Of a DNA stretch of 64,000 bases, positions 25,812-51,500 are shown piece after piece. A program made the translations under genes and the position numbers. Numbering within the stretch: position 1 is the stretch's first letter; every line of letters starts with the position of its first letter. The DNA lies in NCBI GenBank assembly GCA_026413865.1, contig JAOAKB010000005.1, positions 803-64,802 of the forward strand, read 5' to 3'. The notes below the pieces were generated by a model that saw only the letters and a list, made by a program, of their open reading frames with translations, searched no databases and had not been told where the DNA came from. The DNA is from Nitrososphaeria archaeon. GTDB lineage: Archaea > Thermoproteota > Nitrososphaeria > JACIWG01.

Positions 25812-25895
25812 ACAACACCACCATATTGTTGTTGTTCAAGTTGCGCAACATTTAAATCCTTCCTCTGCCCACCCATATTGTTCAACATGAACAAC
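25803..25895. promoter_or_regulatory. Repeat-rich divergent promoter/operator candidate between wHTH paralogue C and nurA
   Basis: TTGTTCAA at 25804, 25832 and 25878. CCATATTGTT at 25821 and 25873. Palindromes GTTGTT-CA-AACAAC (25803-25816) and TTGTTCA-ACA-TGAACAA (25878-25894). Confidence 0.4.
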
Positions 25896-36631: not shown

Positions 36632-37672
36632 TTGATGCAAAATTTAGAAAACAAAAAAATTTTATCACATCTATTAATTACAATTATGTTGTCCTTAATA
36701 ATATTAAATTCACCCACCTTCGCACTATATAATATAATATCACCACAGGCTACAATAACTCTTCCTACCACAATCTTTCCAACAGTAACATTCACATTTC
36801 TTCCAACCTATAGTCTATCTGTTACACCATCAAATGTTACCATAGATCAGGGTGAACAACTTCCAGTTACTGTTACAGTAGGCTCCTATTTTGGATACAA
36901 TAAGACAATATCACTCTATTCTTCAAATGTTCCACCTGGTTTCACAATCAACTTTGCCCTAAACAAACTTACTCCACCAGTAAACGGTAACATAAGTACA
37001 ACAGCATTTATTTCAGTCTCAAAAACTGTTGTAGCTGGAAAATATAAAATGTTCATTAATGCAACAGATGGGTCTATAAAGAGGGGTGTAGAAATTAATG
37101 TGAAAGTGGTTCAAATTACAACCACCCCTCCTACAACAACTCCAACCACCTCTCCTACATCTACTTCACCTACAACGACATCCACTACTCCAACCACCAC
37201 TTCTCCGACAACCACATCACCAACTCCTACTACAACACCTACAACTACATCGCCCACAACTTCAACTACTACACCATCTACCCCCTCTCCAACTACTTCA
37301 CCAACAACAGTCACCACCTCCCAGCCAACTACTACAACATCTGCTGTTTCATCTGGTGGAATAGACACCACAACAATCGTAATTATAGCAATAATACTAA
37401 TAGCAGTATTTGCTGCAATAGCATTCTTTCTTTTAAGAAAGAAGCCTCCACCACCTCCTCCTCCGGCAAAGAGATATTGTATGCACTGTGGAAGCGGCAT
37501 GCCTGATGATGCAGTATCCTGTCCAAAGTGTGGAAAACAGCCTGCAGGCGGCCCAGACACTAAAGTATGTCCAAACTGTGGTTCAGTAATAAACATAGTC
37601 GCATCATTCTGTCCAAAATGTGGTGCAGCACAGCCTAAGGTGGGAGAGAAAGGTGGGTCAACCAGCAGCTAA
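36632..37672 (+). CDS. Type-I-like membrane protein: signal peptide, Ig-like ectodomain, Thr/Pro stalk, TM helix, poly-Pro, cytoplasmic double zinc ribbon
   Basis: N-terminal hydrophobic segment, TM helix TTIVIIAIILIAVFAAIAFFLL, then RKKPPPPPPPAKR, then CMHCG..CPKCG and CPNCG..CPKCG. Confidence 0.6.
   Translation: MMQNLENKKILSHLLITIMLSLIILNSPTFALYNIISPQATITLPTTIFPTVTFTFLPTYSLSVTPSNVTIDQGEQLPVTVTVGSYFGYNKTISLYSSNVPPGFTINFALNKLTPPVNGNISTTAFISVSKTVVAGKYKMFINATDGSIKRGVEINVKVVQITTTPPTTTPTTSPTSTSPTTTSTTPTTTSPTTTSPTPTTTPTTTSPTTSTTTPSTPSPTTSPTTVTTSQPTTTTSAVSSGGIDTTTIVIIAIILIAVFAAIAFFLLRKKPPPPPPPAKRYCMHCGSGMPDDAVSCPKCGKQPAGGPDTKVCPNCGSVINIVASFCPKCGAAQPKVGEKGGSTSS
37114..37342 (+). repeat. Thr/Pro-rich low-complexity coding repeat (TTSPTTT-like units)
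   Basis: Directly visible ACN/CCN-rich repeats encoding TTTPPTTTPTTSPTSTSPTTTSTTPTTTSPTTTSPTPTTTPTTTSPTTS... Confidence 0.85.
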
Positions 37673-38162
37673 ACAAGGTGACAAAATAGTAGCCCAAGAC
37701 ATTCATATTGTCATGGTACCCTCCCCAACTGGACTTGTTCCAACACCTACCCCTCTACCATTTAATGGCATAATAGACGGTAACTTGAGTAATGATGTGT
37801 TTATAGAGGGGAAGCCTGCTGCAACCGTCGGAAGCACTGCAACAAACACTCCACCACATACTCCAGTTGGTGGTGTATCATTTCAGGTTCCTCCAAAAAA
37901 TAGGGGTACAATTCTTGTTGGAAGTATGGGTGTTTTTATAAACGGTAAACCTGCTGCAAGAAACGGTGACACTGCAATAACATGCAATGATCCAGTCGAT
38001 CTTCCTGTAGGCAAGGTTGTCGCTGTTGGAAAGGTTTTTATTGGAGACATGGGTGTTCCAATACCTAAACCTACTACACCTGAAGAAGGGAAGGAGAAAG
38101 GGCTTGAAAAGCCTAAGGTTGAGGACTATAGACTTTTAACCCGTCCTAGAATTGAGGCTTAG
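37653..38162 (+). CDS. PAAR-domain protein (spike-tip cone)
   Basis: Three PAAR-type repeats: GQPAAKQGD, GKPAATVGS, GKPAARNGD. GTG at 37653 is preceded by GGAGAGAAAGG. Overlaps the upstream gene by 20 nt (53 nt if the 37620 start is used). Confidence 0.75.
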   Translation: MGQPAAKQGDKIVAQDIHIVMVPSPTGLVPTPTPLPFNGIIDGNLSNDVFIEGKPAATVGSTATNTPPHTPVGGVSFQVPPKNRGTILVGSMGVFINGKPAARNGDTAITCNDPVDLPVGKVVAVGKVFIGDMGVPIPKPTTPEEGKEKGLEKPKVEDYRLLTRPRIEA

Positions 38163-39619
38163 AGGAACTCAAGCTTCTTATAAACAAAATTTCTTCTATC
38201 CTTAACATATCTTATGAATATTCCATAATGTCTGCTTAGGTTCGATGAAAGGACTAGTTTTGGAAACTCAATGTTTCCAGGACATACTTCATCTTCTTCT
38301 GAAGCTTGTATCATTCCTCCTTCTGCTGGCTGATACCATAAAATACCATTTTTGTCTTGGAAAAGATGATGAGTTAAACCCTCTTCGTCTAAAATCACAT
38401 CTATACACTTTAGCTCACGCTCCTTTGGAACTGGTACAAAAATATTTTTCACTTCAACTTTTCTAATAACGTCTAGAATGTGTGCGTTCAACCTATCTTT
38501 TTCTAATGTTAGATAGTGTAGAGCTAAAATTCTTTCTCCACTTTCATCTATGCAATTGTTTGAAAGCTGGAGTGCAAAACATTGGTTTTCGTTCTTGAAT
38601 AGTGTCTGTTTTGTAACCTCTTCTAGGTTTTCGCCAGAAATTTCAATATAATAGCATTCATTGCATCCTTTTATAGTGTAAACTAGGTGTGCATGTGTTT
38701 TTTCATCGAAGACAAGATTATATTCGTCCAATATTCCTTTGAATGTTTCTAGAGGTTTTGTTTGAAAATTGGCATCTTCTCCTATTTTAATCAAGTATAT
38801 TGTTGACAAGTTGTCTGTAAAGCTGTATGCTAAAGATATCAAAACTCCGTCTTCACAAAAATATGGTGGTTCAAATATACAATTTACTTGAAAAGGCAGT
38901 TCAAAACTGTTCAGGGAAAATTTTTCATCTTCGACAACACATTTGAAGAAAACATTTTTTTCATACCAAACTATACAATTTTTTCTCTGGTCATAGTTTT
39001 CAGGTAATGCAGCATATACGTCATAAGGTTTGTCTAATCTTGTTACACGCTTATTATACCATATGTTTTTTGGAAAGTTTGGACTATTTTTCATAAAATA
39101 TAAGAAATGTTCATTGTTTTGTTTACTTATCCAAGCACTATATATTGGATCATAAGCATATCTCAAGTAGTCTCTTGGTGATGAAATGTATATCGGGTTT
39201 GATGATATAATCTTTATCTGCACAATTTCTGAATTTATAAAAAGTATTTCATGTGATGTATATGTAGCCCTTATCTTATAAAGGTCTTCAGCCAATTCGC
39301 CACAAATTTTTGTCAAATCCAAATTCAAGCATTTTTTACTATTTGGAGATAATTTGAAAGTTTTTGGTTTATAGGGTTTCAAAATTATACCTTCACGTGA
39401 AAGCCAGTTTCGTAGTGGAAATGATCTTTTAAAGCCTGTTTTTCCTAAAACTTTAAAGTTAAGGGAAGCTGATAGTGGTGTCAGTTCATCAAGCAATAAA
39501 TTTTTGTTGCCAATATTCTCTAAGCATACCGTAACTGGAATGGATTCTCCTCTAACGAATTTTCTTCTACTAAATTTCAAATGTAGTTTTAGATTTTCTT
39601 TTAGGCTCAAAAATGTCAC
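38159..39619 (-). CDS. Hypothetical protein, last gene of the contractile-tail operon
   Basis: 486-aa ORF, 3 nt after the upstream gene. No recognisable motif. N-terminal ~110 aa look beta-sandwich-like. Confidence 0.5.
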   Translation of the reverse strand: MTFLSLKENLKLHLKFSRRKFVRGESIPVTVCLENIGNKNLLLDELTPLSASLNFKVLGKTGFKRSFPLRNWLSREGIILKPYKPKTFKLSPNSKKCLNLDLTKICGELAEDLYKIRATYTSHEILFINSEIVQIKIISSNPIYISSPRDYLRYAYDPIYSAWISKQNNEHFLYFMKNSPNFPKNIWYNKRVTRLDKPYDVYAALPENYDQRKNCIVWYEKNVFFKCVVEDEKFSLNSFELPFQVNCIFEPPYFCEDGVLISLAYSFTDNLSTIYLIKIGEDANFQTKPLETFKGILDEYNLVFDEKTHAHLVYTIKGCNECYYIEISGENLEEVTKQTLFKNENQCFALQLSNNCIDESGERILALHYLTLEKDRLNAHILDVIRKVEVKNIFVPVPKERELKCIDVILDEEGLTHHLFQDKNGILWYQPAEGGMIQASEEDEVCPGNIEFPKLVLSSNLSRHYGIFIRYVKDRRNFVYKKLEFL

Positions 39620-39622
39620 ATC

Positions 39623-41746
39623 CTACTGTGTCTCAAAAACGAGTGGTGCACTTTCTATGAAATTATTTGGTCCTCGGCTAATTCTGTACTTTACTTCTGT
39701 CCTCCCTCTACCTACAATTTTTATCTTTGCAATCCAAATTTTATTTTCTTTTCTAACCCTTATTCTTCCAACTTTTGTGTTTGTTGAAATCCAACTTCCT
39801 CTCTCATATTTTGTTAAATCCTTTTTGTAGTCTATATTATCATCGTTTACAACTTCCTCAGAAGGATATAGTGCCAATAGCCTAAGTTCTTCTCCTACAA
39901 TTAGAGATTCAGGCGGGTTTTGATGAATTTTTAGCCAAGGTTCTATCACACTCCACCCATCTTGGTCGACTGTTTCTTTATCGGAATCCTCAACCCAGTA
40001 AACAGTCGGCGTCCTATGATATAATATTGTTCTCAGAGTGTTATCTTCTCCTCTTATCATTCTGTTTCTATCATAAAGTCTTAGTGTTAGTAGGCATAGT
40101 CCGCAAAAGTGCCATTCAACATTATTTATATTATATGACATTACACATGTTATCATATCATCGCTATCATGGTCGTCCCAGTATGGTCCTTCTGAACCAC
40201 TTTCCTCGCATCTTGTTGTGAATGGTATGTCAGTGTTTTTAACAAAATATGTTGCCCCATGTCTTAAGAAGAGTGCGTGTCCAAACTCGTGTACAAATGT
40301 TGACTCCATGTTTAATCCAGATACAATGTAGAACATTTTGTTGAAGAAACTTAGTCCTCCAACACTTGAGTCTTGAAATGGAGGCTTGCATATTAGTGTA
40401 CATACACCAATATCTATTCCTCTAAGCGGGTTTCTTAAACGATTATAAGTTTGTCCACCTAATTTTTCTCTGAAGACTCTTTTCGCCATTTTCTCTAAAA
40501 ACGTCCACGAGTCTCTGTTTAGATTTTGGGGGTCTTCATCTGGCGGTGTTAATTTTTGTGATCCTGGTATCGTTGGATGCGCTTGTGGAAAGGAGTAGTT
40601 TCTTAAGTCTTGAGTTTGCTCATTAACGTAATTGGGTTTCGAATATTCTTTCCATTCACTTTTGCGCCATCCTCTATACACTTCTTCTCCTAAATATCTC
40701 ATCCATTCTTCTCTTGTTATTGTGTACCTTTTTTCTGGTGGTGGTTCCTCAACTTCTATAAAAGCGTCTGCGAAGGCTGACTTTACAACCTTCCATTTCA
40801 TGTCCTCATAGTTTATTCCCTCTTGTAGGGCTACCATTTCTATCTTAATCTTCTTCCATACTGTTATTGTAGGGGTTTGAAAGTATAATGGGTATAGGTC
40901 TGGATTGTCTTTGTCCCTTAAAACAGCCTCTTGTCCGTTTCTGTTGATAAGCCTTATTTTAAGTCTATAATTGTTTCCAGCAACTGGTGGGAAATGTAGT
41001 AAGATTCTAGCATATCCTATTCTTATAATATTGTTTGAACCTTCAATCTTTTCCTCAACTTTTCTTATTGGCACTATGACTGCGTTAGGGTTTTCAGTAT
41101 ATACTCTAAATTGTCTTTTACTTTCATCCAATATTATTTTTTGTGGATTGTCCACATTACCTTGAACGCTTCTACATCTGTCTTGGAATTGTATTGGAGC
41201 AAATATGTTTGGACAGTTGTCTCCTCCATCTCCTCCTGAAACCTGGCTTTTAAGGAATGATACAAAGTCTGCTCCACATCTTCCATGCCCTTTTGGACCC
41301 TTTATTGTGCCAATGTTTTCTGGTGGATCAACTAGTTCTATTATTGCTGAAACTTCGTCTGCAACATAGTTTTCTGGATTGTCTGCAGCCATTTTTGAAA
41401 TTTCAATCTTTACTGGTATGTAAATGTCTATTTTTCCCATTATACCCCATATTCTATAAAATTGGCATTTGTCAACCACATATGATCCATTGTCTCCCAC
41501 ATTCTCTGAAATACATATTCTAAATTCGTCTGAAGATTCTAGGAGGTCAACTTCTTCCCTAATTGGAGTGTATACAGTTCTTTCAGTTTCAGTATCAACG
41601 TCTGATGCCTTTTCTATTGTATAGTTTGCATTCTGAGCTGGTGGTTGAACCTTTAAAGAAACAGTATATGAAACCTCACGTTGTAGTGTTCCTTCTAATA
41701 TGTTTGTTTTAACGTCAACTAAACCGTATGCTGTTACATCACTCAT
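39623..41746 (-). CDS. Large protein with metzincin-like zinc-protease signature
   Basis: 707 aa. HEFGHALFLRH (H-E-x-x-H-x5-H, third His at metzincin spacing) followed ~40 aa later by CVMSYN (serralysin/astacin-type Met-turn S-x-M-S-Y). Confidence 0.6.
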   Translation of the reverse strand: MSDVTAYGLVDVKTNILEGTLQREVSYTVSLKVQPPAQNANYTIEKASDVDTETERTVYTPIREEVDLLESSDEFRICISENVGDNGSYVVDKCQFYRIWGIMGKIDIYIPVKIEISKMAADNPENYVADEVSAIIELVDPPENIGTIKGPKGHGRCGADFVSFLKSQVSGGDGGDNCPNIFAPIQFQDRCRSVQGNVDNPQKIILDESKRQFRVYTENPNAVIVPIRKVEEKIEGSNNIIRIGYARILLHFPPVAGNNYRLKIRLINRNGQEAVLRDKDNPDLYPLYFQTPTITVWKKIKIEMVALQEGINYEDMKWKVVKSAFADAFIEVEEPPPEKRYTITREEWMRYLGEEVYRGWRKSEWKEYSKPNYVNEQTQDLRNYSFPQAHPTIPGSQKLTPPDEDPQNLNRDSWTFLEKMAKRVFREKLGGQTYNRLRNPLRGIDIGVCTLICKPPFQDSSVGGLSFFNKMFYIVSGLNMESTFVHEFGHALFLRHGATYFVKNTDIPFTTRCEESGSEGPYWDDHDSDDMITCVMSYNINNVEWHFCGLCLLTLRLYDRNRMIRGEDNTLRTILYHRTPTVYWVEDSDKETVDQDGWSVIEPWLKIHQNPPESLIVGEELRLLALYPSEEVVNDDNIDYKKDLTKYERGSWISTNTKVGRIRVRKENKIWIAKIKIVGRGRTEVKYRISRGPNNFIESAPLVFETQ

Positions 41747-42243
41747 GATTGTTCTTCCTTTAACTTGTATCCTTTGATTTTTAGTTTGAACCTGCCTTTT
41801 GGCACTCCCTTAAATTTTGCACATCCTTGTGTGAATGTTCCCTTTTCTTTGCTTCCATCAGAAAATTCTATCTCAAATTCTACATTATTCAATGGTGTAC
41901 CGTTTTCATCTTTTACATATATTTCTAGTGGGTATATGAATGTCCATGGTTCTGACTGTGCTTCTAGGTCTCCAACTTTTGCCCTAAAATAGTACTCTTC
42001 TAATTCGCCCTCTTCTTCTACTATCTCTTCCTTTTTTAACGTGTCTCTTTTTTCAGTTGCTCTTGGTGTCCATAGTGCCTCACCTTTTCCACCTCTTACT
42101 GTACCATTTACTTGGTCCACTATCTTTTCCTCACTGCCCTTTTTCATCCAGATCTCGAACTGCACTAGTCTTCCGTCTTCGAATCCTCTTGTGTCTACAC
42201 GTAGTTTTATTGGGCCTAGTGGTATCTTGTTTCTTTGGCTCAA
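41743..42243 (-). CDS. Hypothetical protein (beta-rich)
   Basis: 166-aa ORF with 4-nt overlaps at both ends, suggesting translational coupling within the operon. Confidence 0.45.
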   Translation of the reverse strand: MSQRNKIPLGPIKLRVDTRGFEDGRLVQFEIWMKKGSEEKIVDQVNGTVRGGKGEALWTPRATEKRDTLKKEEIVEEEGELEEYYFRAKVGDLEAQSEPWTFIYPLEIYVKDENGTPLNNVEFEIEFSDGSKEKGTFTQGCAKFKGVPKGRFKLKIKGYKLKEEQS

Positions 42244-42908
42244 ACTTTTCTTTGCTCCCTAATCTCTATCCTCTCTATTGGTGGAACTATCCTTGTAATC
42301 TTTAACTCGGTTTCAGCATTGCATGATATTATTGCCTGGTTTTCTTCGACCATTTTCCCATATAATGGCTTGAATGTTGTCCCTATTTCTTCGAAACTTT
42401 TTTCTGATTGGTATAAGATTTTTATCACATTTTCTATTAGATTGTCTAGTTGTTGTCTATCCTTTGATGTTATAATAATATGATATTTTGCCTCTATCTT
42501 GAGCCTATTAACTTCAACCTTCTTTGTTTTCGTATTATATCTTATTATAATGTTTTTGTTTCCTTTAGAAGGCTGTACCCTAAACAATATTGTTTTTCTC
42601 TCATAGTCTACATTATAGTCTTGTAGTTCCTCTAACCTTTTTCCTGCTGGATGTTCGACTGAAACAATGTTTGAAGGTGTCTCTTTTAAAACATAATCTT
42701 TTCTTTCTCCGTCTCCATCAAATTCTTCTGTTACAAGTTCACCTTCCTCTTCCACTATGTTCGATTTATCTATTTTGAACGCTACATTTTTTAATAATAT
42801 TGAAGGTTTTATGTCTATCTTGAATCCTATCCTAATGTTTTCTTCAGCAACCTCTTTAACCTCTTTTCTTAATATTTTGAGAACCTTTTCCTCAAGCTCA
42901 TAGAGCAT
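42240..42908 (-). CDS. Hypothetical protein
   Basis: 222-aa ORF within the operon. No recognisable motif. Confidence 0.45.
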   Translation of the reverse strand: MLYELEEKVLKILRKEVKEVAEENIRIGFKIDIKPSILLKNVAFKIDKSNIVEEEGELVTEEFDGDGERKDYVLKETPSNIVSVEHPAGKRLEELQDYNVDYERKTILFRVQPSKGNKNIIIRYNTKTKKVEVNRLKIEAKYHIIITSKDRQQLDNLIENVIKILYQSEKSFEEIGTTFKPLYGKMVEENQAIISCNAETELKITRIVPPIERIEIREQRKV

Positions 42909-42918
42909 TAGGTTTACC

Positions 42919-43566
42919 TCATATTGGACCTATTTTTGACTTGTAATGTATAACATTCCCTATTTTAAGTATACAGTTTGGTTCGCTCTTTCTAAATGAT
43001 ATATTGAACACTTCCTTTTCAGGATGAGGATTTTTTAACCTATACCTGTACCAGACTCTCTCGTTTGGTGAGAGAAGATATTCTAGGTACGGGTTTTCTG
43101 AACTTTTAGGCCTAAGTCTTGAACATTCGTTTATAAATAGGCCGCTTACTACGCTTGATGTTCCATCAAGGTACTCGAACACTATATCCAGTGCCTTCTT
43201 GTCGCCGTCTTCTGCTCCAGCCCAATATTCCAGTATTTCAAGATATGCTGCTAGCCCGAATCTGCATAGTTCTCCAACCTTTCCCCTCTCTGTCGCCCAC
43301 TGTCTTGTTATTGGTCCAACCACTGTTGCATTGTAGCTTGCTGTTTCTCCTGGTACTGGAACATTTAGTTCGTAACTTGTTCCAACCGGGCTTGCTGGGT
43401 TTAGGATTGTAGCGCTTTCTGTTAGGCTTTCAACATACTTTCTAAGTTCTATAACGCTTTTCTCTATCTCTTCTAAATCTTTTAGGATATCCTCTTGTAT
43501 TCTGTTCCAGTCTTCAGCTTTTATAAGTTCGCCAGGCTTTTTTGTTATGGGCTTAAATTTTGGCAC
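42919..43566 (-). CDS. Hypothetical protein, tail-fibre/receptor-binding candidate
   Basis: Sits in the slot occupied by fibre genes in Mu/P2/PBSX tails. The N-terminal LIKAEDWNRIQEDI plus coiled-coil resembles N-termini of phage fibre proteins. Recognition is weak. Confidence 0.35.
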   Translation of the reverse strand: MPKFKPITKKPGELIKAEDWNRIQEDILKDLEEIEKSVIELRKYVESLTESATILNPASPVGTSYELNVPVPGETASYNATVVGPITRQWATERGKVGELCRFGLAAYLEILEYWAGAEDGDKKALDIVFEYLDGTSSVVSGLFINECSRLRPKSSENPYLEYLLSPNERVWYRYRLKNPHPEKEVFNISFRKSEPNCILKIGNVIHYKSKIGPI

Positions 43567-44457
43567 CTAGTCCACCTCCACAATAATCTTTACTCCAGCG
43601 GCCTTAATTGCATCTAATACTTCTTTCACATATTCCTTTGTATACTTGCTTCTATTTAAAGCCTCTCTTCCTATTTTTACTGCTATTGTTGCAGGCTGTA
43701 ATCTTGTCCACTTGAATCTAACTGTAGCCTTTGGTGTACTTACAGCAAATATGCTTTCATCAAAGTAGCTTGAATCGAACACACCTATCCTTTCTCTTAT
43801 AAGCTCAGAATATTTCCATGTTGAAGCTTTTCTATGCAAGAATATTGTTTTGGTCTCCATCTTATCATTTGCCTCAACATCATTTATGTAGCATTTACCG
43901 TTTTTTATTACTATCTTGTCTCCTTTTTCGAAAACCCCTTTAAGGTTTACGTATGTGTTAAAGTCTAGGTTTGATATTGAAGGGTTTTCTATCCTGTCCG
44001 ATGCATCAATTTCTAATGTTGGTGTAGTCTTTTCTTCTATACTGTAGCTTCCAAGTGTCCACGTGTCCCCTGACATAACACTTACTTCATATGATGAGTC
44101 GGCTGGAGGGTTTTCTATAATTTGGATACCCTCTCCTACAATACTCTTTAGTATTGAGTGTATAGAATGTAGAGTTCCTCCTCCGGTAAAGTCTACTATT
44201 GCCCTAACTATTCTACTCCTATACCTCTCATCCTCTTCTCCTTCTAATCTTTTTAGTCCAAATATTGATCCCATTAGGTCTAGGTCTCCATCTGATGCTG
44301 TTTCTATCCAGTGTGAAAGCATCATATTGTATGCTAGCTCTTTTGTGTAATCGAGTTCTGTTCCAATTGCTTTAACAAGTTTAAAGATTATTGAAGACTT
44401 TATCCAGTATTTGTAAAAGTCTGGTAGGCGGGAGAATATTTTGTCCGCGCTAGACAA
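43567..44457 (-). CDS. Baseplate protein, gpI / Mu gp48 (DUF2313)-like
   Basis: Position directly after the Baseplate-J gene, with RLPDFYKYW near the N-terminus. TTG at 44457 is 1 nt after the J stop, with AGGAGG 11-16 nt upstream. This is preferred over the GTG at 44517. Confidence 0.5.
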   Translation of the reverse strand: MSSADKIFSRLPDFYKYWIKSSIIFKLVKAIGTELDYTKELAYNMMLSHWIETASDGDLDLMGSIFGLKRLEGEEDERYRSRIVRAIVDFTGGGTLHSIHSILKSIVGEGIQIIENPPADSSYEVSVMSGDTWTLGSYSIEEKTTPTLEIDASDRIENPSISNLDFNTYVNLKGVFEKGDKIVIKNGKCYINDVEANDKMETKTIFLHRKASTWKYSELIRERIGVFDSSYFDESIFAVSTPKATVRFKWTRLQPATIAVKIGREALNRSKYTKEYVKEVLDAIKAAGVKIIVEVD

Positions 44458-44458
44458 T

Positions 44459-46021
44459 CTATTCCATCCTCCTATACGAGATTCTAATGTTCCTTGCCAG
44501 AACCTTTTCCTCGTCACTTACCACAATATTTTCTTTTTCACTTCTAACTACACCTTCTGCTACTCTATGTGCTTCTATAACAAGTTCTGCTATATCTCTT
44601 ACGCCTTCCACTTCTAATGCGAGGGCTGCAGCCTTATAGAATAGTACATCTTCACCTATCTTTAGACTGGAAAGGTAGCTTCTGATTTGCTCTTCAACTT
44701 TTCTTGAAACCTCTGCTTCCGACGCCTTCTTTTCTAAAACTAGTGTTATGTCCACATCAATGTAGACTGGTTTTGGTCTCGAAAATTCAACTTTTATGCC
44801 CGCAGCTCTTGTCCTTTCTATTGCCTCAATAATTTTTTCAGGGTCTCCTCCGTCCACTATAACCTTTATTATTCCTGGAACATTGTCTACAGTCTCCTTC
44901 ACTAGCACAGAGCTTACTCCCTCAACTGACTTTATTGTTGTTTCAAGTGATGGTAGTGTTGCTTTTCCAGCTATTTCGAGTGCACGTTTTGCTCTATCTC
45001 TGAGTTCTCTATCGCTTTCTGCGTCAACTCCTCCTGTTATGTCAACCTTGTTTATCACATATTCTATTCCTACAAGTGGTTGTGGTAATACTGTTATTGA
45101 CCCTGCTAGAACGTTTCCCCTTGGTCCTGGAATTGTGCAGACTATTGGGACATCTGCTTCCCAGTTTTCCTCTGCTGTAGGCTTTAGTATGGAATCTTCT
45201 ACTGTAGTATATGTTATGACCTCCTCTGGTTTTGCAGAATATGTTGATACTCTTGTCCCCTTTGGAATGGGAATTTCACGGTATGCTATATAGTCTACAG
45301 TGAATGTTGTTCCTTGGTCAGGCCTTTTTCCTGTAGGAAGCCATCTTATCCTATTTTCTGAAATAATATAATCAACTTCGCTTCTAAACTCTGCTGCTAT
45401 ACCATTTGCTAGTCCCTTCACTTTTGAAACTTCTTTTACAAACCTGTTCCTTAAAGTATATTCTATTGAACCATCATAGAATATTATTTCTCCATTAACC
45501 TGTATTGTTTCTGGTTCACTTCTTCTACCGAATGTTACGTATCCTGAAGCTGGTTGTGGCGGTTTTCTTCTTATACCAAGTATTGCTACCACAAGGTCAA
45601 GTGCTTCACCTGACGCAGTATCTATAAATCCTGAATAATATGCCCGCTCTATTAGAAGGTTAAGATACTCTATTTCTCTTCCTACCGCCTCTAATATTGT
45701 TCTAACAACACTTCCTGGAGAAGTGTCCGTTATCTCAGCCCTTTCAGGCTTATATGTTACATTAAATTTTGTTCCATCATCGGGTCTACTGCCTCCATAA
45801 ATCCATTCAATATAATTTTCAGAAAACCTGTAGTCCAAATCTTTTACAAAAGTCTTCTTTAAGCCGTTAACAAAACCTTCTACTGATATTATATCCAAAA
45901 CCTTTCCAGACAATATGTATCTTACAACATTTTTTGAGTAAACGAATTCCTCTGACGCTTCGCTCAACATTCTAAGCATTTCTCCAACAATCTGCTGGAA
46001 AGTTTTCTTTTCAATTGGCAC
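44459..46021 (-). CDS. Baseplate J-like (T4 gp6 / P2 gpJ family) wedge protein
   Basis: 520 aa. SPGSVVRTILEAVGREIEYL motif typical of the Baseplate_J family. Abuts the gp25-like gene. Confidence 0.75.
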   Translation of the reverse strand: MPIEKKTFQQIVGEMLRMLSEASEEFVYSKNVVRYILSGKVLDIISVEGFVNGLKKTFVKDLDYRFSENYIEWIYGGSRPDDGTKFNVTYKPERAEITDTSPGSVVRTILEAVGREIEYLNLLIERAYYSGFIDTASGEALDLVVAILGIRRKPPQPASGYVTFGRRSEPETIQVNGEIIFYDGSIEYTLRNRFVKEVSKVKGLANGIAAEFRSEVDYIISENRIRWLPTGKRPDQGTTFTVDYIAYREIPIPKGTRVSTYSAKPEEVITYTTVEDSILKPTAEENWEADVPIVCTIPGPRGNVLAGSITVLPQPLVGIEYVINKVDITGGVDAESDRELRDRAKRALEIAGKATLPSLETTIKSVEGVSSVLVKETVDNVPGIIKVIVDGGDPEKIIEAIERTRAAGIKVEFSRPKPVYIDVDITLVLEKKASEAEVSRKVEEQIRSYLSSLKIGEDVLFYKAAALALEVEGVRDIAELVIEAHRVAEGVVRSEKENIVVSDEEKVLARNIRISYRRME

Positions 46022-46429
46022 TTAAACCACCTCCAATAGCATTGAATAAAATACTGTTAAGGGTCTTCTCTTTCCAACTGGTATAACAACAATCTCAATA
46101 TCGATCCTGTTTGGGTCTAAAATGTTGGGTGAAACTGTAACGCTTACAATTTCTTTGATTCTAGGCTCTCCAGATAGTGCATTAAGTACATATGTTCTTG
46201 CAAGGTTTCTTGTTTCTTCAGTGTTAGGTTGCCCTATTAGGTCATATAATTTTGAGCCATAGTCAGGGTGTCCTAGTTCCTCTAATTCGCCAAGGTCTGT
46301 CATTAGCCTGTGCACTATTGCCTGGGCAAGATTTTCTTCCTCCTGTGCAAGTTGTAGATCTCCATCTTTTACTTGTAGGTCTGCGCCTGCTTCATCAAAC
46401 TTTAATTTTAGGTCTGATTTTAATGACAT
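46022..46429 (-). CDS. gp25/GPW-like baseplate wedge (sheath-initiator) protein
   Basis: 135 aa. ...AIVHRLMTDLGE...GHPDYGSKLYDLIG...GEPRIKEI pattern of the GPW_gp25 family. Confidence 0.75.
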   Translation of the reverse strand: MSLKSDLKLKFDEAGADLQVKDGDLQLAQEEENLAQAIVHRLMTDLGELEELGHPDYGSKLYDLIGQPNTEETRNLARTYVLNALSGEPRIKEIVSVTVSPNILDPNRIDIEIVVIPVGKRRPLTVFYSMLLEVV

Positions 46430-46438
46430 GCTGTCACC

Positions 46439-47158
46439 CTAGTTTATGTTCACTGTTGCACCCTTTATTGTAGTCCTGCCACTTGCTTCCATGTTCATGT
46501 CAGCTGAAGATGTTAGCTTTAGGTTTGCGTCCGTGTTTATCTTCAAATCCGCTCCAGCATTGACCTCAAGCTCCTTTTCACTTTCGACCTTTATCTTTGA
46601 AGCTGAAAGTGATAGTGTTCCTCCTGAAGAGATTTTTGTGTTGCCTTTGGCTTTTACTACAACGTCTGCCTTCGACTCTATCACAACATCTCCATCTTTG
46701 TGCACTATAACCTTTGTTTCTCCTGTCTTAACCATAATATCTTCGTCCGTAATTTTTATCATTGTTCCCTCTGGAAACTCTAAATATATTCTTCTTTTCT
46801 CTGCATTTTTTGTGTAGGGTGGTACAAATACTATCTCTTCTAAATCGTTTACTGGAGGTCTATCTTCGTCATTGTATAGTCTTCCTATTATGACTGGTAG
46901 GTTTATGTCTCCGTTAACAAACGATACTAGGACTAGGTCTCCCACTCTCGGGGGGCATGCTAGACCTATTACCTGTGTTGCAATTTGAACGTGCTGAAGC
47001 TCTATTTCTCCACCCTTAATCTTGACATTACATTCATAGTTTTCTTTATCGTTCGGTGTACTATGTGGGAATACTGATGTTACGACACCCAATTCTATAG
47101 TATAATTTTTTTTAGCCTCGTTTTCAGCGATTTTTCTTATAAGCTCCACTATGCTCAT
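46439..47158 (-). CDS. Central spike (gpV / gp5 OB-fold + C-terminal beta-helix; VgrG-like)
   Basis: LGVVTSV...RVGDLVLVSFVNGDINLPVIIGRLYN OB-fold motif, then repetitive beta-helix VVIESKADVVVKAKGNTKISSGGTLSLSASKIKVESEKELEVNAGADLKINTDANLKLTS. Confidence 0.8.
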   Translation of the reverse strand: MSIVELIRKIAENEAKKNYTIELGVVTSVFPHSTPNDKENYECNVKIKGGEIELQHVQIATQVIGLACPPRVGDLVLVSFVNGDINLPVIIGRLYNDEDRPPVNDLEEIVFVPPYTKNAEKRRIYLEFPEGTMIKITDEDIMVKTGETKVIVHKDGDVVIESKADVVVKAKGNTKISSGGTLSLSASKIKVESEKELEVNAGADLKINTDANLKLTSSADMNMEASGRTTIKGATVNIN

Positions 47159-47159
47159 A

Positions 47160-48161
47160 CTATTTCACTTCTATTCCTCCTATTAGTGTAGTGAATCCTT
47201 CCCTAAAGTTTAGGTGGTGTTCTACTTCAACAACCTCAAACTCTATAGGCTCTTGAGTTTCTGGAATGTTTTCGACCTTTACTGTGTCACTAACTTTAAT
47301 CTTAGGTTCTCCCAGTGTCCTCAAAAATGTCATGAAATCTATCTTTCTTCTAGAATATATGTTTTCTGCTACTGTTGTAACTGTATCCGTGTCCTTTATT
47401 GTATAGTCCTTTAAAATTAGTTCATGAGCTCCTTTTCCTGTAGATGTTCCGGAATAATCTTTTTTTGAAAGCCAATGAAATGTTTCTCTTCCAGCCCAGC
47501 TTGATGGGCTTTCTCCATAAACTGTTATGCCACCAATCGGATTAAACAATTTAATCAAACTTACTTCTATAATGTTTTCTCCATATTTAAGTGTATAAGG
47601 TTCTTTTCTCTCATATGCTTTAAAGTTTAGTAGTCCTTCTGATGTTGTATAGCATATGTAATTGCATTTTTCCGCTAGCCTTGCTATGTGCTCGTATGCA
47701 TTCATGTTTTCTCCTATAACATAGTATGGGAACATTATCCCATCCATTATTTTCTCATGTTTTAGGGTCTCCTCTCCTTTTTCAGTCAGCCTCTTATTTA
47801 ATGTGTCCAATATATCTGAAACAATGTTTCCCGCTGTCTGGTTAAGGTAAACCCTATTCAATCTCAATATTGTTAGGTGTAGTGCATGGTTTAGTGCGTA
47901 TACTCTTGTCTGTCTAAAACTTTTTTCTATTAGGTCAACTATTCCAGAAAATACTGTCTGTAGGCTGTCCTCGTATCCTATCTTAACAAGAACTTTTTCC
48001 CCCCTCTGCACCTTCTCTGTCTCCTCATCTCTTGTTAGTGTTAATTCTAGTGTGTCAACTTTTGGACATAGTCCACACTTTACTCTTATGCCAAAAACTT
48101 TTGTTGAAGATGGTGTAAACGTTTTCGAACCAAATGTTATCTCATAGTTTGGGTAATACAA
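47160..48161 (-). CDS. Baseplate hub, late-control-gene-D / gp27-like
   Basis: 333 aa. N-terminal pattern (i.i.g..f......sl.V......vDtLeLtL...GekVlVkiGY...lqtVFsGiVd) typical of gpD/Mu gp44. Position directly upstream of the spike. Confidence 0.65.
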   Translation of the reverse strand: MYYPNYEITFGSKTFTPSSTKVFGIRVKCGLCPKVDTLELTLTRDEETEKVQRGEKVLVKIGYEDSLQTVFSGIVDLIEKSFRQTRVYALNHALHLTILRLNRVYLNQTAGNIVSDILDTLNKRLTEKGEETLKHEKIMDGIMFPYYVIGENMNAYEHIARLAEKCNYICYTTSEGLLNFKAYERKEPYTLKYGENIIEVSLIKLFNPIGGITVYGESPSSWAGRETFHWLSKKDYSGTSTGKGAHELILKDYTIKDTDTVTTVAENIYSRRKIDFMTFLRTLGEPKIKVSDTVKVENIPETQEPIEFEVVEVEHHLNFREGFTTLIGGIEVK

Positions 48162-48163
48162 TA

Positions 48164-48661
48164 TTATTTCACCTGCCTTAAAATGTCATAGACTTCTTTA
48201 ATTATAGACTCTGTCTCCTCTTTTGCAGCTTCTTCTTGGCTTGGTGCCGGCTTCTCCTCCTGTTTTGTGCTCTTATGCTCTTTTAGGACTAGAATATAAC
48301 AGTAGCTTGTGGGAGAGTAGCTTACTATTGTTGCCCTAAAACTTTCTATCACAACCTCTGAAATTTCTGTTATAGATGGTATGTCTGAAACAAACTGTAC
48401 TGGTTTGCCGAGCTTAAATTTAGAGTTAAGGTCTTGGAATGTGTTCTTTGAATTTGGTCCAGTTAAGAGTCCTTCAACTATAATCGTTATAGGATATCTT
48501 CCGAAGTCTTGGAATACGCTTCCATCATGTCCTGGTATCTTTATTTCATAAACTTGTCTTCTGTTCGATAGGGTAACATTTATTATGCTTCTTGTCTCTA
48601 ATATTGTTCCCTCCTGGTCTACTCTTTTAACGAGTTCGAGGTCATCTAATTTTATATTCAA
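48164..48661 (-). CDS. Hypothetical baseplate/tube-adaptor protein (Mu gp43 / XkdP slot)
   Basis: 165 aa, between the tape-measure candidate and the hub. Assignment is by position only. Confidence 0.35.
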   Translation of the reverse strand: MNIKLDDLELVKRVDQEGTILETRSIINVTLSNRRQVYEIKIPGHDGSVFQDFGRYPITIIVEGLLTGPNSKNTFQDLNSKFKLGKPVQFVSDIPSITEISEVVIESFRATIVSYSPTSYCYILVLKEHKSTKQEEKPAPSQEEAAKEETESIIKEVYDILRQVK

Positions 48662-48673
48662 AATATTTCACCT

Positions 48674-50506
48674 TCAAAATATTGGGCCATAATATCTTCT
48701 AAACTGTTCTCTCAAAATCTGTGTAATCTTTCTTTCAAGCTCCCATAGGTCTAATTCTGCACCCTCTGGCACTGTTATATTGAAAATGTTCTGTATCTCG
48801 TGTTCCATTAGACTTTGGCTTGGGTGCGTGGGCTGTATTGTGTAAGGTTGTCTTATGGTTGGGGATAATGTTTCACGTCTTGCTTCTTCTTCAGCTATTC
48901 TGAATATTCTTGATGTTTCTAGAAACTGTGATACTGTTGTCATCATTGGAGAAGGCTCTGCTGGTCTCACAACTTTTACATCATATAATAGCCTGTCATA
49001 TAATTGTATTAGGTTTTGGAGAATGTTTTTTGATATTGTTGATAGTGGATAGTATGCCTCTAAACCAAAATATTTTATGGCTTCTGTCTCTTGAGCTAAT
49101 GCTGGAAATGTTTCCAGAATGTTCAAGACTTTTGTGTAAACAGCTTTTCTTGTAAAGTCCTCGAACTTTAATATATCATGTGCTGGTGGATACACTGTAC
49201 TTGTTTGCGTGTAGACTTTTCCTATTATACTGTGAGGGCTTAAGCCAGTAGAAGATAATATTATTGTGTATGGTCTCACTATTGCTTTATGAGTGTAGAA
49301 TATACTTAAGGTGTCTAAGCTAGTATATGGCAATGTCTGTGAATATACTGTAGTTGAAAGTCTATGAGTATAGAATGGATATTCTTTGGCTAAAAGGTGT
49401 ATGTAGTGTGTTAGTGGCGTGGATGTAAAAGCTGATTTTATGGTTTCAATACCTCTATCCTTTTCTATGTTGACTAAAGCTGTTGGTTCGAGTAAAGCTT
49501 GCTTTATAGTGTCTGAAAAAGTTTTTGAAAGTATTTCTTGAAGTTTGGGCACCTGTGTAGCTAATATGAAATAGGATAGAATGTATGGTATACTCAATAT
49601 GTTCTTGTACTCATGCAACGGATGTATTATTGTTTCTCTTATTGGTGATGGAATATTTTTTTCTAGTTCACCAAATTCTGTGAACGTTTTCTTGGCCAGT
49701 GATTGGATAAACCTATAGTCTACGCTTTCTAACTTTTCTCCAAATTCTATTAGTGGGCTGGAGATATAATATTTTGTGAACACTTCTTCTGGCATTATAA
49801 ATTGTTTTGGAATAATATATCTTGTCTCAGGCAATTGGCTGCCTAATTGTGTTAGGATGTTAACTAGACTGCTTATGTACTTAAATGGTTCCCCCAACTC
49901 CTGTCTTAATTCAAGTATCTTCTCTTCTCTAGTCTCATCATATACTTTAGCAGTCTCTATTTTAGATGTTATCGTTTCCTCTATGGGTTTTGTTTCACTA
50001 ATTCTCCTTGTTTCTGGAACAATTTTTTCCTCTAACTTTAACTCTTTCTTAATAGCCTTTTCTGGTGCAATATATCCTGTTCCTATAGTATATTGGCCTA
50101 CACTTTTTTCAGCCTGCATGATATACGATGTACTCTCTCCCACGATCTTGTATGCTTCACTCAAGCTTTCTGGCATTATAACATGTCTTATAAAATGCTC
50201 TGGTACTTTAGCCTGTCTACCTGCCACAATATTTCTTAACAGGTTTATTGTATAAGATATTCTTGGCTGAGCATATATTCTCTGTAATGGTTCAAAAAAT
50301 TCTTCTCTAACACCTTCTATGGGAGCTGAAATACTTGTTTGTGGTACAATTTTTCTTGGAACATAATATCTTGAAATATAACTATTAATATTAATAAAAA
50401 CCTTCATTAAATCTTTAAAAAATTTAGTGTATGATAAGATAATTTTTGATAGAGGCTCAAATAGTATATCCATTATCCTATTAAGGACCATATTAAATTG
50501 GCTCAA
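48674..50506 (-). CDS. Tape-measure protein candidate
   Basis: 610 aa, the second-largest gene in the operon after the 707-aa metzincin-signature protein (39623..41746), located after the chaperone genes as in tailed-phage modules. No sequence motif recognised. Confidence 0.45.
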   Translation of the reverse strand: MSQFNMVLNRIMDILFEPLSKIILSYTKFFKDLMKVFININSYISRYYVPRKIVPQTSISAPIEGVREEFFEPLQRIYAQPRISYTINLLRNIVAGRQAKVPEHFIRHVIMPESLSEAYKIVGESTSYIMQAEKSVGQYTIGTGYIAPEKAIKKELKLEEKIVPETRRISETKPIEETITSKIETAKVYDETREEKILELRQELGEPFKYISSLVNILTQLGSQLPETRYIIPKQFIMPEEVFTKYYISSPLIEFGEKLESVDYRFIQSLAKKTFTEFGELEKNIPSPIRETIIHPLHEYKNILSIPYILSYFILATQVPKLQEILSKTFSDTIKQALLEPTALVNIEKDRGIETIKSAFTSTPLTHYIHLLAKEYPFYTHRLSTTVYSQTLPYTSLDTLSIFYTHKAIVRPYTIILSSTGLSPHSIIGKVYTQTSTVYPPAHDILKFEDFTRKAVYTKVLNILETFPALAQETEAIKYFGLEAYYPLSTISKNILQNLIQLYDRLLYDVKVVRPAEPSPMMTTVSQFLETSRIFRIAEEEARRETLSPTIRQPYTIQPTHPSQSLMEHEIQNIFNITVPEGAELDLWELERKITQILREQFRRYYGPIF

Positions 50507-50509
50507 ACA

Positions 50510-50692
50510 CTATTCACCTTCCTCCTCAACCTTTATTCTCGTTATACCTTGTGCCGCAAGCCTCGACTGAGCCAATTGCTCAGCACGATATGCTAGGGCT
50601 GAAATCAAAAAAAGGATTTGGTCCCGAGTTAGGTCTCGGGGGCTATCCGCAAGCTTATAGCCACAGTCTAGGCAGAGTGTCGCCAACTCCAT
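50510..50692 (-). CDS. Small ORF, candidate frameshift extension of the tail assembly chaperone (gpT-like)
   Basis: 60-aa ORF. Its reading frame stays open upstream to 50755 and spans the A9 tract at the end of the preceding gene. Confidence 0.4.
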   Translation of the reverse strand: MELATLCLDCGYKLADSPRDLTRDQILFLISALAYRAEQLAQSRLAAQGITRIKVEEEGE

Positions 50693-50717
50693 TCCATCAG
50701 GGCTTCTGACAAAGTTT

Positions 50718-51089
50718 TCAATGTCTAACTTTTTTTTTAGCCTCCTCCTCGCTTCTCACGACACCGCTTAATTCGAAAACCTTCATCCCAATATATTCTG
50801 GTACACCAAACTTCATTGTCTCCAGGTCTTGTAGTGTGAGTTTTGGTTCCACTAGCCCTTCTAAGGCTGCTTTTCTTAATATTTCAAAATTTTTTGAAAT
50901 GTCTATTTTACTAAAGTCTGGTGTCCCATCCTCCTTTACTGGAACACTTCCTATTGAAGAAAATATTTTTGAAAGTTCTCCATCTGTTAGAGGCCTTATT
51001 GTGACTTCAGCATCATATTCTCTAATATACAATGTTTCCCTTCTGTTTGCTCCTTCTAAGATAATGTCTTTAGTAAGTTTTCTTGTCAT
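50718..51089 (-). CDS. Tail assembly chaperone-like protein (gpG / XkdN slot)
   Basis: 123 aa, acidic, between tube and tape measure. IRPLTDGELSKI resembles TAC families. Confidence 0.5.
   Translation of the reverse strand: MTRKLTKDIILEGANRRETLYIREYDAEVTIRPLTDGELSKIFSSIGSVPVKEDGTPDFSKIDISKNFEILRKAALEGLVEPKLTLQDLETMKFGVPEYIGMKVFELSGVVRSEEEAKKKVRH
50730..50738 (-). other. A9 homopolymer: candidate recoding (+1/-2 frameshift or transcriptional slippage) site
   Basis: The minus strand reads GCT AAA AAA AAA GTT AGA CAT TGA. The +1 frame reads CTA AAA AAA AAG TTA GAC ATT GAA... and continues into the 50510..50692 ORF. Confidence 0.4.
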
Positions 51090-51090
51090 C

Positions 51091-51492
51091 TTATTGCTCC
51101 CTTACTCTTGTTGCTGTAAAAGTGTATAGGCTTATTCCTACACCGTTTGCGTCTAGAGTAAATGTTTTGTCTTCAAGGTAGCAGTCGTCGAATGAAATAG
51201 TCTTTATAGCTGTTCCTCTCATCTTCAACTCTACTACAAGCTGGAACGATTTGACCTCTGGAAGTGGTGAAAGTAGTATGCTGTCAAACTTTTGATATGT
51301 TGAACGTACTCTTATTACACCATGAACATATAATGGGCCATAGTCTACTCCTATTCTCTCATCTCCACCAATATTGTATACGTTCTGCCTATTCCTAATA
51401 ATCTTCCATTCTATAGACTGTAGTCCTGGAATAACTTCTCCGTCAACCTTAACACTACTTACATTTGCGGAAACAACAGTTGGTTCTGGCAT
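51091..51492 (-). CDS. Tail tube protein
   Basis: 133 aa, 8 nt downstream of the sheath gene. Beta-rich. Size and position match XkdM/Mu gpM-type tubes. Confidence 0.6.
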   Translation of the reverse strand: MPEPTVVSANVSSVKVDGEVIPGLQSIEWKIIRNRQNVYNIGGDERIGVDYGPLYVHGVIRVRSTYQKFDSILLSPLPEVKSFQLVVELKMRGTAIKTISFDDCYLEDKTFTLDANGVGISLYTFTATRVREQ

Positions 51493-51500
51493 CTACTCAT

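Follow-up and report, generated by a model that had tools for sequence, protein, structure and literature searches.

A candidate spike-tethered metzincin toxin and its co-inherited partner in contractile injection loci of Thermoproteota

A 64,000-nucleotide stretch of contig JAOAKB010000005.1 from a Nitrososphaeria archaeon (assembly GCA_026413865.1; this whole stretch is referred to here as the window) carries a contractile injection operon whose last two genes encode a 707-amino-acid (aa) protein with a zinc-peptidase motif and a conserved 486-aa partner. The 707-aa protein is very probably a genuine metzincin-type peptidase, as judged from its sequence and that of its relatives, and it is probably cargo of the contractile particle rather than a structural part of it. 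Overall, we lean towards a model in which this metzincin is a toxin tethered to the spike or its PAAR tip and accompanied by a cognate immunity-like partner. The original prediction for this protein, made from the DNA alone, had offered two possibilities, an effector or an enzymatic baseplate appendage. The first is favoured by the partner gene, by orphan copies of the gene pair, by linkage to VgrG and by an adaptor linked to PAAR, whilst the second is disfavoured.

Contractile injection systems are widespread in archaea, but functional data are limited to haloarchaea, and the cargo of those found in Thermoproteota is almost unexplored. The locus described here offers a candidate cargo in the form of an enzyme with a clear active site, a co-inherited partner and a candidate adaptor that is fused to PAAR elsewhere.

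A predicted metzincin family with a putative second metal site

The protease gene is an open reading frame (ORF) with an ATG start and a 707-aa translation at 39623..41746 of the window. The ORF proposed in the original prediction, which gave no strand, is therefore real and is encoded on the minus strand; translation of the plus strand at these coordinates is interrupted by many stop codons. Between the ATG start and the stop codon of the upstream 166-aa gene there is a 4-nt overlap (ATGA), so that the translational coupling claimed earlier can be read in the DNA itself, and the GTG start of the downstream gene lies 3 nt past the protease stop. An identical protein is on record as a hypothetical protein from a Nitrososphaeria metagenome-assembled genome (MAG). 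The protein is laid out as an N1 beta-sandwich, an N2 beta-sandwich, a helical linker, the catalytic domain and a C-terminal Ig-like domain. No signal peptide or transmembrane (TM) segment was seen when its N-terminus was read by eye, and single-sequence searches of Pfam, NCBIfam, PHROG and PDB gave no match.

The catalytic metzincin-like domain occupies aa 401-571 (40034..40546, minus) and comprises a backing helix, beta-strands, an active-site helix, a Met-turn and a C-terminal helix. An alignment of 30 diverse domains sharing 22-42% identity with the target (alignment A2) was used as a profile against PDB, and solely metzincins were found among its best 60 matches. The best of these was the snake-venom adamalysin leucurolysin-A (E 4.5e-6), with further matches to MMP-14, serralysins, protease C, archaemetzincin (E ~1e-3), ADAMTS-5 and myroilysin, those to MMP-14, serralysin and archaemetzincin having E-values of about 1e-3 or better. 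A profile starting at the HExxH aligned with serralysins from the zinc motif through the Met-turn, setting the CxMSY of this family on the serralysin (S/I/L)MSY with E-values of 0.004-0.02, which bears out the serralysin-type Met-turn (SxMSY) that had been suggested. The PDB matches to serralysins were limited to this HExxH-to-Met-turn stretch (E 0.004-0.6). Weak Pfam matches of the 30 relatives fell to Reprolysin_5 (19 relatives), Reprolysin_4 (15), Peptidase_M66 (10), Peptidase_M10 (9) and Peptidase_M54 (2), the families touched being metzincin families throughout.

Structure prediction gave a less even picture. The full-length AlphaFold2 (AF2) model, built on a 12-sequence alignment, had a mean predicted local distance difference test score (pLDDT) of 56, with values <50 across aa 372-577. 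The model of the domain alone, built on the 30-sequence alignment, was of medium confidence (pLDDT 72.5; predicted template modelling score, pTM, 0.70) and showed the elements in the expected order, i.e. helix, strands, active-site helix and C-terminal helices. All of its top 25 Foldseek matches were catalytic domains of the adamalysin/ADAM/MMP type, with E-values of 0.02-1 and TM-scores of 0.33-0.42. A zincin fold around the HExxH, on which the original prediction had been made to depend, is suggested by profile searches that returned metzincins alone (best E 4.5e-6), with weaker support from Foldseek. Since the profile, Met-turn alignment, Pfam and model evidence all point there, we file the protein in the metzincin clan.

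Three assignments to described families were considered and rejected. Neither the serralysin (M10B) family model nor an RTX beta-roll was matched. The target had no match to the archaemetzincin (M54) model Peptidase_M54, its conserved set consists of three invariant Cys plus one His, and only 2/30 relatives touched that model. DUF4157, an HExxH domain of contractile injection systems, was unmatched by the target and by 30 diverse relatives at E<=0.1. The domain would therefore belong to a metzincin family without a database model, which is new and is marked by its CxMSY Met-turn, by a Phe or Tyr where the motif usually has Gly and by a putative Cys3-His site.

The zinc-binding motif HEFGHALFLRH is located at aa 486-496 (H486, E487, H490 and H496; 40259..40291, minus) and has the His/Glu spacing of a metzincin, with Phe493 at the position of the usual Gly, as had been noted before; at this position the relatives have Phe, Tyr or another residue. 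The Met-turn CVMSY follows at aa 534-538 (C534, M536 and Y538; 40133..40147, minus). A putative second metal site is made up of H526, in an HD motif, C534, and the C548 and C551 of FCGLC (40094..40171, minus), the stretch aa 526-551 (nt 40094-40171) reading HDSDDMITCVMSYNINNVEWHFCGLC. When the window was translated in all six frames, the pattern HExxHx5H was found a single time, compared with 0.04 occurrences expected from 100 mononucleotide shuffles. Conservation across homologues is the stronger evidence for the motif.

A word-indexed search retrieved 12 close homologues, which came without exception from MAGs of Nitrososphaeria or from metagenomes, and H486, E487, G489, H490 and H496 were kept in all 11 that span the region. 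A profile search of 1.84 billion cluster representatives extended the family to 153 protein clusters at E<=1e-3, including bacterial members from Phycisphaeraceae and Acidobacteriota. Across this wider family HExxHx5H was kept in 134 of the 135 domain instances that span the motif, the exception being an N-terminally truncated fragment, and CxM...CxxC was retained in 125/135. The motif that had been picked out from a single sequence is therefore conserved in close and distant homologues alike. The invariant columns of alignment A2 are H486, E487, G489, H490, H496, H526, C534, M536, C548 and C551, to which an alignment of the C-terminal sub-domain (A5) adds Y538 (conservation >=90%). The zinc-motif residues were invariant in alignments A1, A2, A3 and A5, and H526, C534, C548 and C551 were all invariant in the diverse alignments A2 and A5. 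Such invariance across diverse alignments argues for strong selection on the catalytic residues and on four further potential metal ligands. Together, the invariant His and the three Cys probably make up a second metal site of structural type, and the CxM...CxxC layout of this set resembles the Cys4 structural zinc site of archaemetzincins.

A co-inherited partner gene and linkage to spike proteins

The 486-aa partner is encoded directly downstream of the protease gene (38159..39619, minus). We examined 25 loci encoding relatives of the protease, searching their ORFs with the window operon proteins and with profiles, and a partner homologue was found directly downstream of the protease gene in every one of loci L001-L022 that has downstream DNA. 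The only exceptions were L023-L025, where no partner follows the giant multi-protease proteins. This pairing spans Nitrososphaeria, Methanomethylicia, Bathyarchaeia, Planctomycetota and one bacterium bearing a type VI secretion system (T6SS). In pairwise comparisons the window partner matched the bacterial partners with E-values of 6e-17 (L006), 2e-9 (L004) and 3e-7 (L008), the homologues align end to end (alignment A4), and the partner of L018, which lay outside the profile training set, was recovered at E 3.9e-71. The partner has a weak arrestin/Ig-like signal over its first ~40 residues and a C-terminal domain without a match. No family or PDB match, no recognisable inhibitor fold and, in the window copy, no signal peptide were found. 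It would thus represent a second family without a database model, and a new one.

Gene order around the protease is strongly conserved in archaea. That of the whole window locus is repeated in seven full archaeal loci (L002, L007, L010 and L012-L015), drawn from Nitrososphaeria, Methanomethylicia, Bathyarchaeia and metagenome contigs, and the same order is seen on the partial contigs L003 and L009. Identity of the protease to the window protein in these archaeal loci ranges from 29% to 71%. Copies of the protease-partner pair also occur away from tail genes, as orphans, at L016 9986-13787 and L011 9959-13532, in MAGs that already have an in-cluster pair (L013 and L014, respectively). Their flanks are housekeeping genes (macro domain, nitroreductase and MFS; diphthamide synthase and radical SAM).

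In bacteria the pair keeps company with spike genes. In two planctomycete loci (L020 and L022) the gene immediately before the pair encodes a full VgrG (Phage_GPD + Phage_base_V + Gp5_trimer_C). On a metagenome contig (L006) the pair is preceded by a VgrG cut down to its C-terminus (Phage_base_V + Gp5_trimer_C) and ending in a transthyretin-like domain, and in L004 a PAAR gene adjoins the pair. Locus L008 is a canonical T6SS (TssE/F/G, ClpV and PAAR), in which a 1508-aa VgrG ends in the catalytic domain and is followed by the partner gene. The same VgrG-protease fusion contains a PG_binding_1 domain, and other bacterial relatives have PG_binding_1, OmpA-like or CarboxypepD_reg domains, one of them (P0132) with a transthyretin-like domain at its N-terminus. 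The L008 partner begins MRKIFTVIVIVMVLVHIGGC, a lipoprotein signal peptide with a lipobox. A lipoprotein partner adjoining a peptidoglycan-binding VgrG-protease argues that the partner acts in the target compartment of the enzyme, not in the compartment where it is loaded, and so favours immunity over a loading chaperone.

A third gene may connect the archaeal protease to the spike tip. The 166-aa protein p166 (41743..42243, minus), translationally coupled to the protease gene, has a C-terminal prealbumin/transthyretin-like domain (Pfam SpaA prealbumin-like, E 2.9e-5; CarboxypepD_reg, E 0.002). Aligned from end to end, it shares 42% identity (E 1e-31) with the C-terminal half of a PAAR fusion in L007 (14892-15884, minus), and it has a weaker match to a PAAR ORF in L015 (18049-18900, minus). 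Because a p166 homologue is fused to PAAR, it would follow by the Rosetta-stone argument that p166 binds PAAR. In the window the PAAR spike-tip protein is encoded convergently to the operon (37620..38162, plus; Pfam PAAR_motif, E 2.1e-16), and PAAR is found in the same position in L002, L007 and L012-L015. In L007 a caspase-like Peptidase_C14 gene (13654-14835, minus), which does not occur in the window, lies between the partner and PAAR genes.

Accessory domains and family architectures

The original prediction had found nothing recognisable in the N-terminal ~450 residues, and this stands: searches of Pfam, NCBIfam, PHROG and PDB were empty and the model offers generic Ig-like sandwiches. 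The beta-rich N1 domain covers aa 1-140 (41327..41746, minus; AF2 pLDDT 75-91 over most of aa 21-140) and, from counts of architectures, is found mainly in members tied to archaeal contractile-system loci. The N2 beta-sandwich, with the motifs HFPPxxGNNY and TPTITxWK, covers aa ~200-345 (40712..41149, minus; AF2 pLDDT 66-93) and is the commonest companion of the catalytic domain, the N2-MZ (N2-metzincin) arrangement being the most frequent architecture (47/160 proteins) and having further variants. The C-terminal Ig-like beta-sandwich covers aa ~580-707 (39626..40009, minus; AF2 strands E581-706), with a block-mean pLDDT mostly of 67-88 and dips to 37-57. The beta-sandwiches of the full-length model are confident at aa ~20-140, ~200-300 and ~580-707. 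Foldseek searches of PDB and the BFVD viral models returned generic Ig-like/BIG2-like sandwiches, none at E<=1e-3. In this model, which is poor in its middle third, no fibre-like repeat, coiled coil, or fibre or baseplate-attachment fold was seen, and no fibre family of Pfam or PHROG was matched.

The catalytic domain is central in the window protein and lies at the very C-terminus in several larger relatives. One of the relatives (P0141, 1019 aa) has a FYVE zinc finger, a domain that binds phosphatidylinositol 3-phosphate and is typical of eukaryotes, at aa ~862-940, a hint that some family members might act inside eukaryotic cells. This protein was also considered as a counterpart of Pseudomonas aeruginosa VgrG2b and rejected as such, having the FYVE finger and no VgrG domains. 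The giant bacterial relatives, of 1666-2139 aa (L023 6368-12784, L024 7334-12373, P0147 and P0152), come in part from Planctomycetota and Candidatus Sulfopaludibacter. Those of L024, P0147 and P0152 have two metzincin domains each, and the L023 protein is closely followed by another ORF that bears the domain.

The operon and its neighbours

The structural genes of the contractile system lie at 42240..52850 on the minus strand and were recognised by Pfam and PHROG matches. In order, the operon encodes sheath, tube, a 123-aa protein, a 610-aa tape-measure-like protein, DUF6046, a gpD hub, a gpV/VgrG-like spike, gp25, Baseplate_J, a gpI/Mu gp48-like protein, proteins of 215 aa, 222 aa and 166 aa, the protease and the 486-aa partner, so that the protease is gene 14 of 15 in a co-directional unit (38159-52850). 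For the 215-aa and 222-aa proteins, p215 and p222 (42240-43566, minus), neither a family nor a PDB match was found. None of the operon proteins matched Pfam or PHROG families for an Afp15-type AAA+ ATPase, a tail terminator/cap or tail fibres, some of which roles p215 and p222 may fill, and T6SS membrane-complex and ClpV families were likewise unmatched by the operon proteins scanned. As listed, the Baseplate_J ORF (44459-46021, minus) and the gpI-like ORF (43567-44517, minus) overlap by 59 nt. The GTG start of the latter may have been called too far upstream. The J protein weakly matches the gpI query in every locus, which suggests that the two proteins share a domain.

Upstream of the PAAR gene, co-oriented with it and slightly overlapping it, is a gene (36632..37672, plus) for a membrane protein that combines a hydrophobic segment at its N-terminus with a Pro/Thr-rich linker, a TM helix and a double zinc ribbon on the cytoplasmic side (Pfam DZR and Zn_Ribbon_1). 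The zinc-ribbon membrane and PAAR genes are kept together in all archaeal loci with enough downstream DNA (L002, L007 and L012-L015). The zinc-ribbon protein could serve as an anchor in the membrane or as a trigger, in a logic like that of the putative anchor Hbor_38620 of haloarchaea. A 161-aa Gly/Val-rich ORF on the opposite strand of the Pro/Thr-rich linker (37111-37596, minus) is almost certainly an artefact of repetitive sequence.

The window has the low GC content (33-40%) of an archaeal chromosome. The scanned flanking genes are all housekeeping genes (PurP-type DUF1246/DUF1297, SMC, ELP3, GatDE, Nop56/58, Trm1 and HerA-NurA) and include no capsid or terminase family, so the locus appears to be a contractile injection system of the chromosome rather than a prophage. 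The NurA-HerA pair, of archaeal DNA end resection, is at 25878-28423 (plus), and with the other housekeeping genes it takes up the remainder of the window, which places the injection locus within core chromosome.

Discussion

In the model that we infer, the protease is probably attached to the PAAR/spike tip by way of p166, contraction of the sheath would drive the spike together with the protease into a neighbouring cell, where the enzyme would be active and toxic, and the 486-aa partner would keep it harmless in the producer and its kin, most likely as an immunity protein or inhibitor. As for substrates, the bacterial members point to the cell-wall compartment, and S-layer or cytoplasmic proteins are candidates in archaea. 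As in effector-immunity modules, linkage to spike and contractile-system genes was found together with a cognate, co-inherited gene downstream. Toxins of extracellular contractile injection systems (eCIS) usually lie at the operon end (PMC8213781), and protease and partner are the last two genes here. The co-inherited pair, its copies inside and outside the locus, its place behind VgrG or PAAR and its fusion to VgrG all argue for such a module, and these same features would be difficult to explain if the protein were an obligatory baseplate or fibre subunit. That the partner is specifically the immunity protein has, in our estimate, close to an even chance. We also suggest, more tentatively and as rather less than an even bet, that a toxin-antidote module has moved between bacterial T6SS and the phage-tail-like systems of Thermoproteota, where the protease would serve as a spike-tip weapon against competing archaea by way of a PAAR-binding adaptor.

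Several observations weigh against this interpretation. The full-length model is poor, that of the catalytic domain is of medium confidence and no Foldseek match reached E<=1e-3, although the sequence-profile evidence for a metzincin fold is stronger. The Gly that follows the active-site helix in metzincins is replaced by Phe. The place of the gene after a gpI-like baseplate gene is where P2-type tails encode their fibres, and the predicted Ig-like domains at both ends of the protease would also suit a surface-binding appendage. Many of the matches counted for the partner came from the training set of the partner profile, L018 being the clean independent case. At 486 aa, and without a recognisable inhibitor fold, the partner is large for an immunity protein, and since archaeal and planctomycete partners have no signal peptide, the compartment argument rests on one T6SS locus.

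The strongest rival, which we nevertheless regard as unlikely, is an enzymatic baseplate or fibre appendage: the protease would be displayed on the particle surface, attached to the baseplate by its sandwiches, and would cut the S-layer of the target ahead of the spike, as an archaeal analogue of phage tail-associated lysins or depolymerase tailspikes, with the partner as assembly chaperone or second fibre subunit. It would account for a gene that comes after Baseplate_J and gpI-like genes, the P2-type site of fibre and fibre-chaperone genes, for the Ig-like beta-sandwiches at both protease ends and for a position strictly kept in seven archaeal loci. No other fibre was recognised in the operon by Pfam and PHROG, or by PDB searches with p215 and p222, and, the S-layer being a protein wall, a protease would be plausible as penetration enzyme. 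It fits poorly, however, with orphan pairs lying far from tail genes in MAGs that already have an in-cluster pair, and with bacterial loci in which the pair follows VgrG or PAAR and proteins matching the window sheath and baseplate are not found nearby. Fusion of the domain to VgrG occurs in a T6SS, a system without fibres, in which the exported lipoprotein partner cannot be a cytoplasmic fibre chaperone. No fibre-like repeat, coiled coil or fibre fold was seen in the protease itself, the model of which is poor in its middle third, and a scan of 2.9 million IMG/VR viral contigs found no relatives.

A processing or maturation peptidase that acts inside the producer, trimming the tape measure or spike or releasing a toxin, is a good deal less probable. 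Such a role has been suggested for the DUF4157 'PVC-metallopeptidase' of eCIS loci, of which HExxH domains are a recurrent marker with proposed functions in toxin loading, release or maturation (PMC8213781, PMC11297309), and it would suit a protease gene translationally coupled within a structural operon. Against it, neither the protease nor its relatives match DUF4157, Pfam and PHROG scans of the locus brought up no other toxin candidate, and a maturation protease with housekeeping duties would not be expected to have a dedicated, co-inherited partner. Action outside the producer cytoplasm is likewise suggested by the orphan pairs and by VgrG fusions that carry peptidoglycan-binding domains. 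Least of all do we credit an unrelated cellular metalloprotease, e.g. of envelope or quality-control function, that merely sits at the operon end: orphan copies do show that the pair can exist outside the locus, but its position and coupling are the same in three archaeal classes at 29-71% protease identity, and the association with VgrG and PAAR, including a covalent VgrG fusion, recurs in unrelated bacteria.

If the more tentative suggestion of an exchanged module with a spike-tip weapon is true, no proteolytic effector and no defined loading route would have been described earlier for an archaeal contractile system outside haloarchaea. At stake are two families without a database model, the predicted metzincins (at least 153 clusters at 50% identity) and the partner (no Pfam or PDB match), and the putative Cys3-His second metal site would be a new variation on the metzincin scaffold. 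The locus also bears on the exchange of effector modules between bacterial and archaeal injection machines.

Comparison with known systems

Amongst peptidases, the family shares with serralysins and astacins the extended HExxHxxxxxH motif, an x-M-S-Y Met-turn with a conserved Tyr and a profile alignment running from HExxH to the Met-turn. It differs from both in having Cys before the Met, Phe or Tyr in place of Gly, a CxxC after the Met-turn and a much shorter stretch from strands to helix, and from serralysins in that Pfam, NCBIfam and PDB searches gave no match outside the catalytic region, e.g. to an RTX beta-roll. Archaemetzincins (MEROPS M54) have the motif HExxHxxGxxHC..CxM..CxxC and a Cys4 structural zinc. 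Like them, the family has a minimal metzincin domain with a CxM and then a CxxC, suggestive of a second zinc site in the C-terminal sub-domain. Unlike them, it lacks the Cys beside the third His, the invariant H526 appearing to replace the fourth ligand, the distance from Met-turn to CxxC is ~11 residues here against 17, and there is a ~37-residue insert after the third His. DUF4157 is likewise an HExxH domain, genetically associated with the contractile injection systems of bacteria and archaea (PMC8213781). It has no sequence match to the family described here, which the third His, Met-turn and CxxC define as metzincin-type, and is usually N-terminal in toxins (PMC8213781), whereas the protease domain here is central.

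The closest bacterial parallel is found in the cargo effectors of T6SS that ride on evolved VgrG or VgrG-PAAR proteins, such as VgrG1-Tle1 of enteroaggregative Escherichia coli (EAEC), where the transthyretin-like domain of VgrG binds the effector Tle1 (PMC10433429). Shared with these are the linkage to VgrG or PAAR, a cognate gene immediately downstream and a spike-associated transthyretin-like adaptor domain, and one bacterial relative of the protease is itself a C-terminal VgrG fusion in a canonical T6SS. The window locus differs in being archaeal and phage-tail-like, in having a free-standing adaptor instead of a VgrG extension and in its unusually large partner. No description of this metzincin family among T6SS or VgrG effectors was found in the literature searched.

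The closest archaeal parallel comes from haloarchaeal contractile systems, for which a 2024 study showed secretion of toxin-immunity pairs, the toxins having DUF4157 as their HExxH domain (PMC11566945). The T6SS-like system of Halogeometricum borinquense (PMC11566945) resembles the one described here in being an archaeal contractile system with HExxH toxins and a protective partner gene downstream, with pairs both in the cluster and elsewhere in the genome and toxins postulated to ride on the spike. It differs in that its toxins carry DUF4157 and in that its host belongs to the Halobacteriota and not to the Thermoproteota classes found here, and the putative membrane anchor has six TM helices in haloarchaea as against a double zinc ribbon membrane protein here. 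Since HExxH cargo is known, including from archaea (PMC8213781, PMC11566945), a protease on an archaeal contractile particle is not categorically new, and the novelty claimed for it in the original prediction was overstated. What is new is the predicted metzincin family with its partner, the joint occurrence of homologous pairs in Thermoproteota injection loci, planctomycete VgrG islands and a canonical T6SS, and a candidate PAAR-binding adaptor in archaea.

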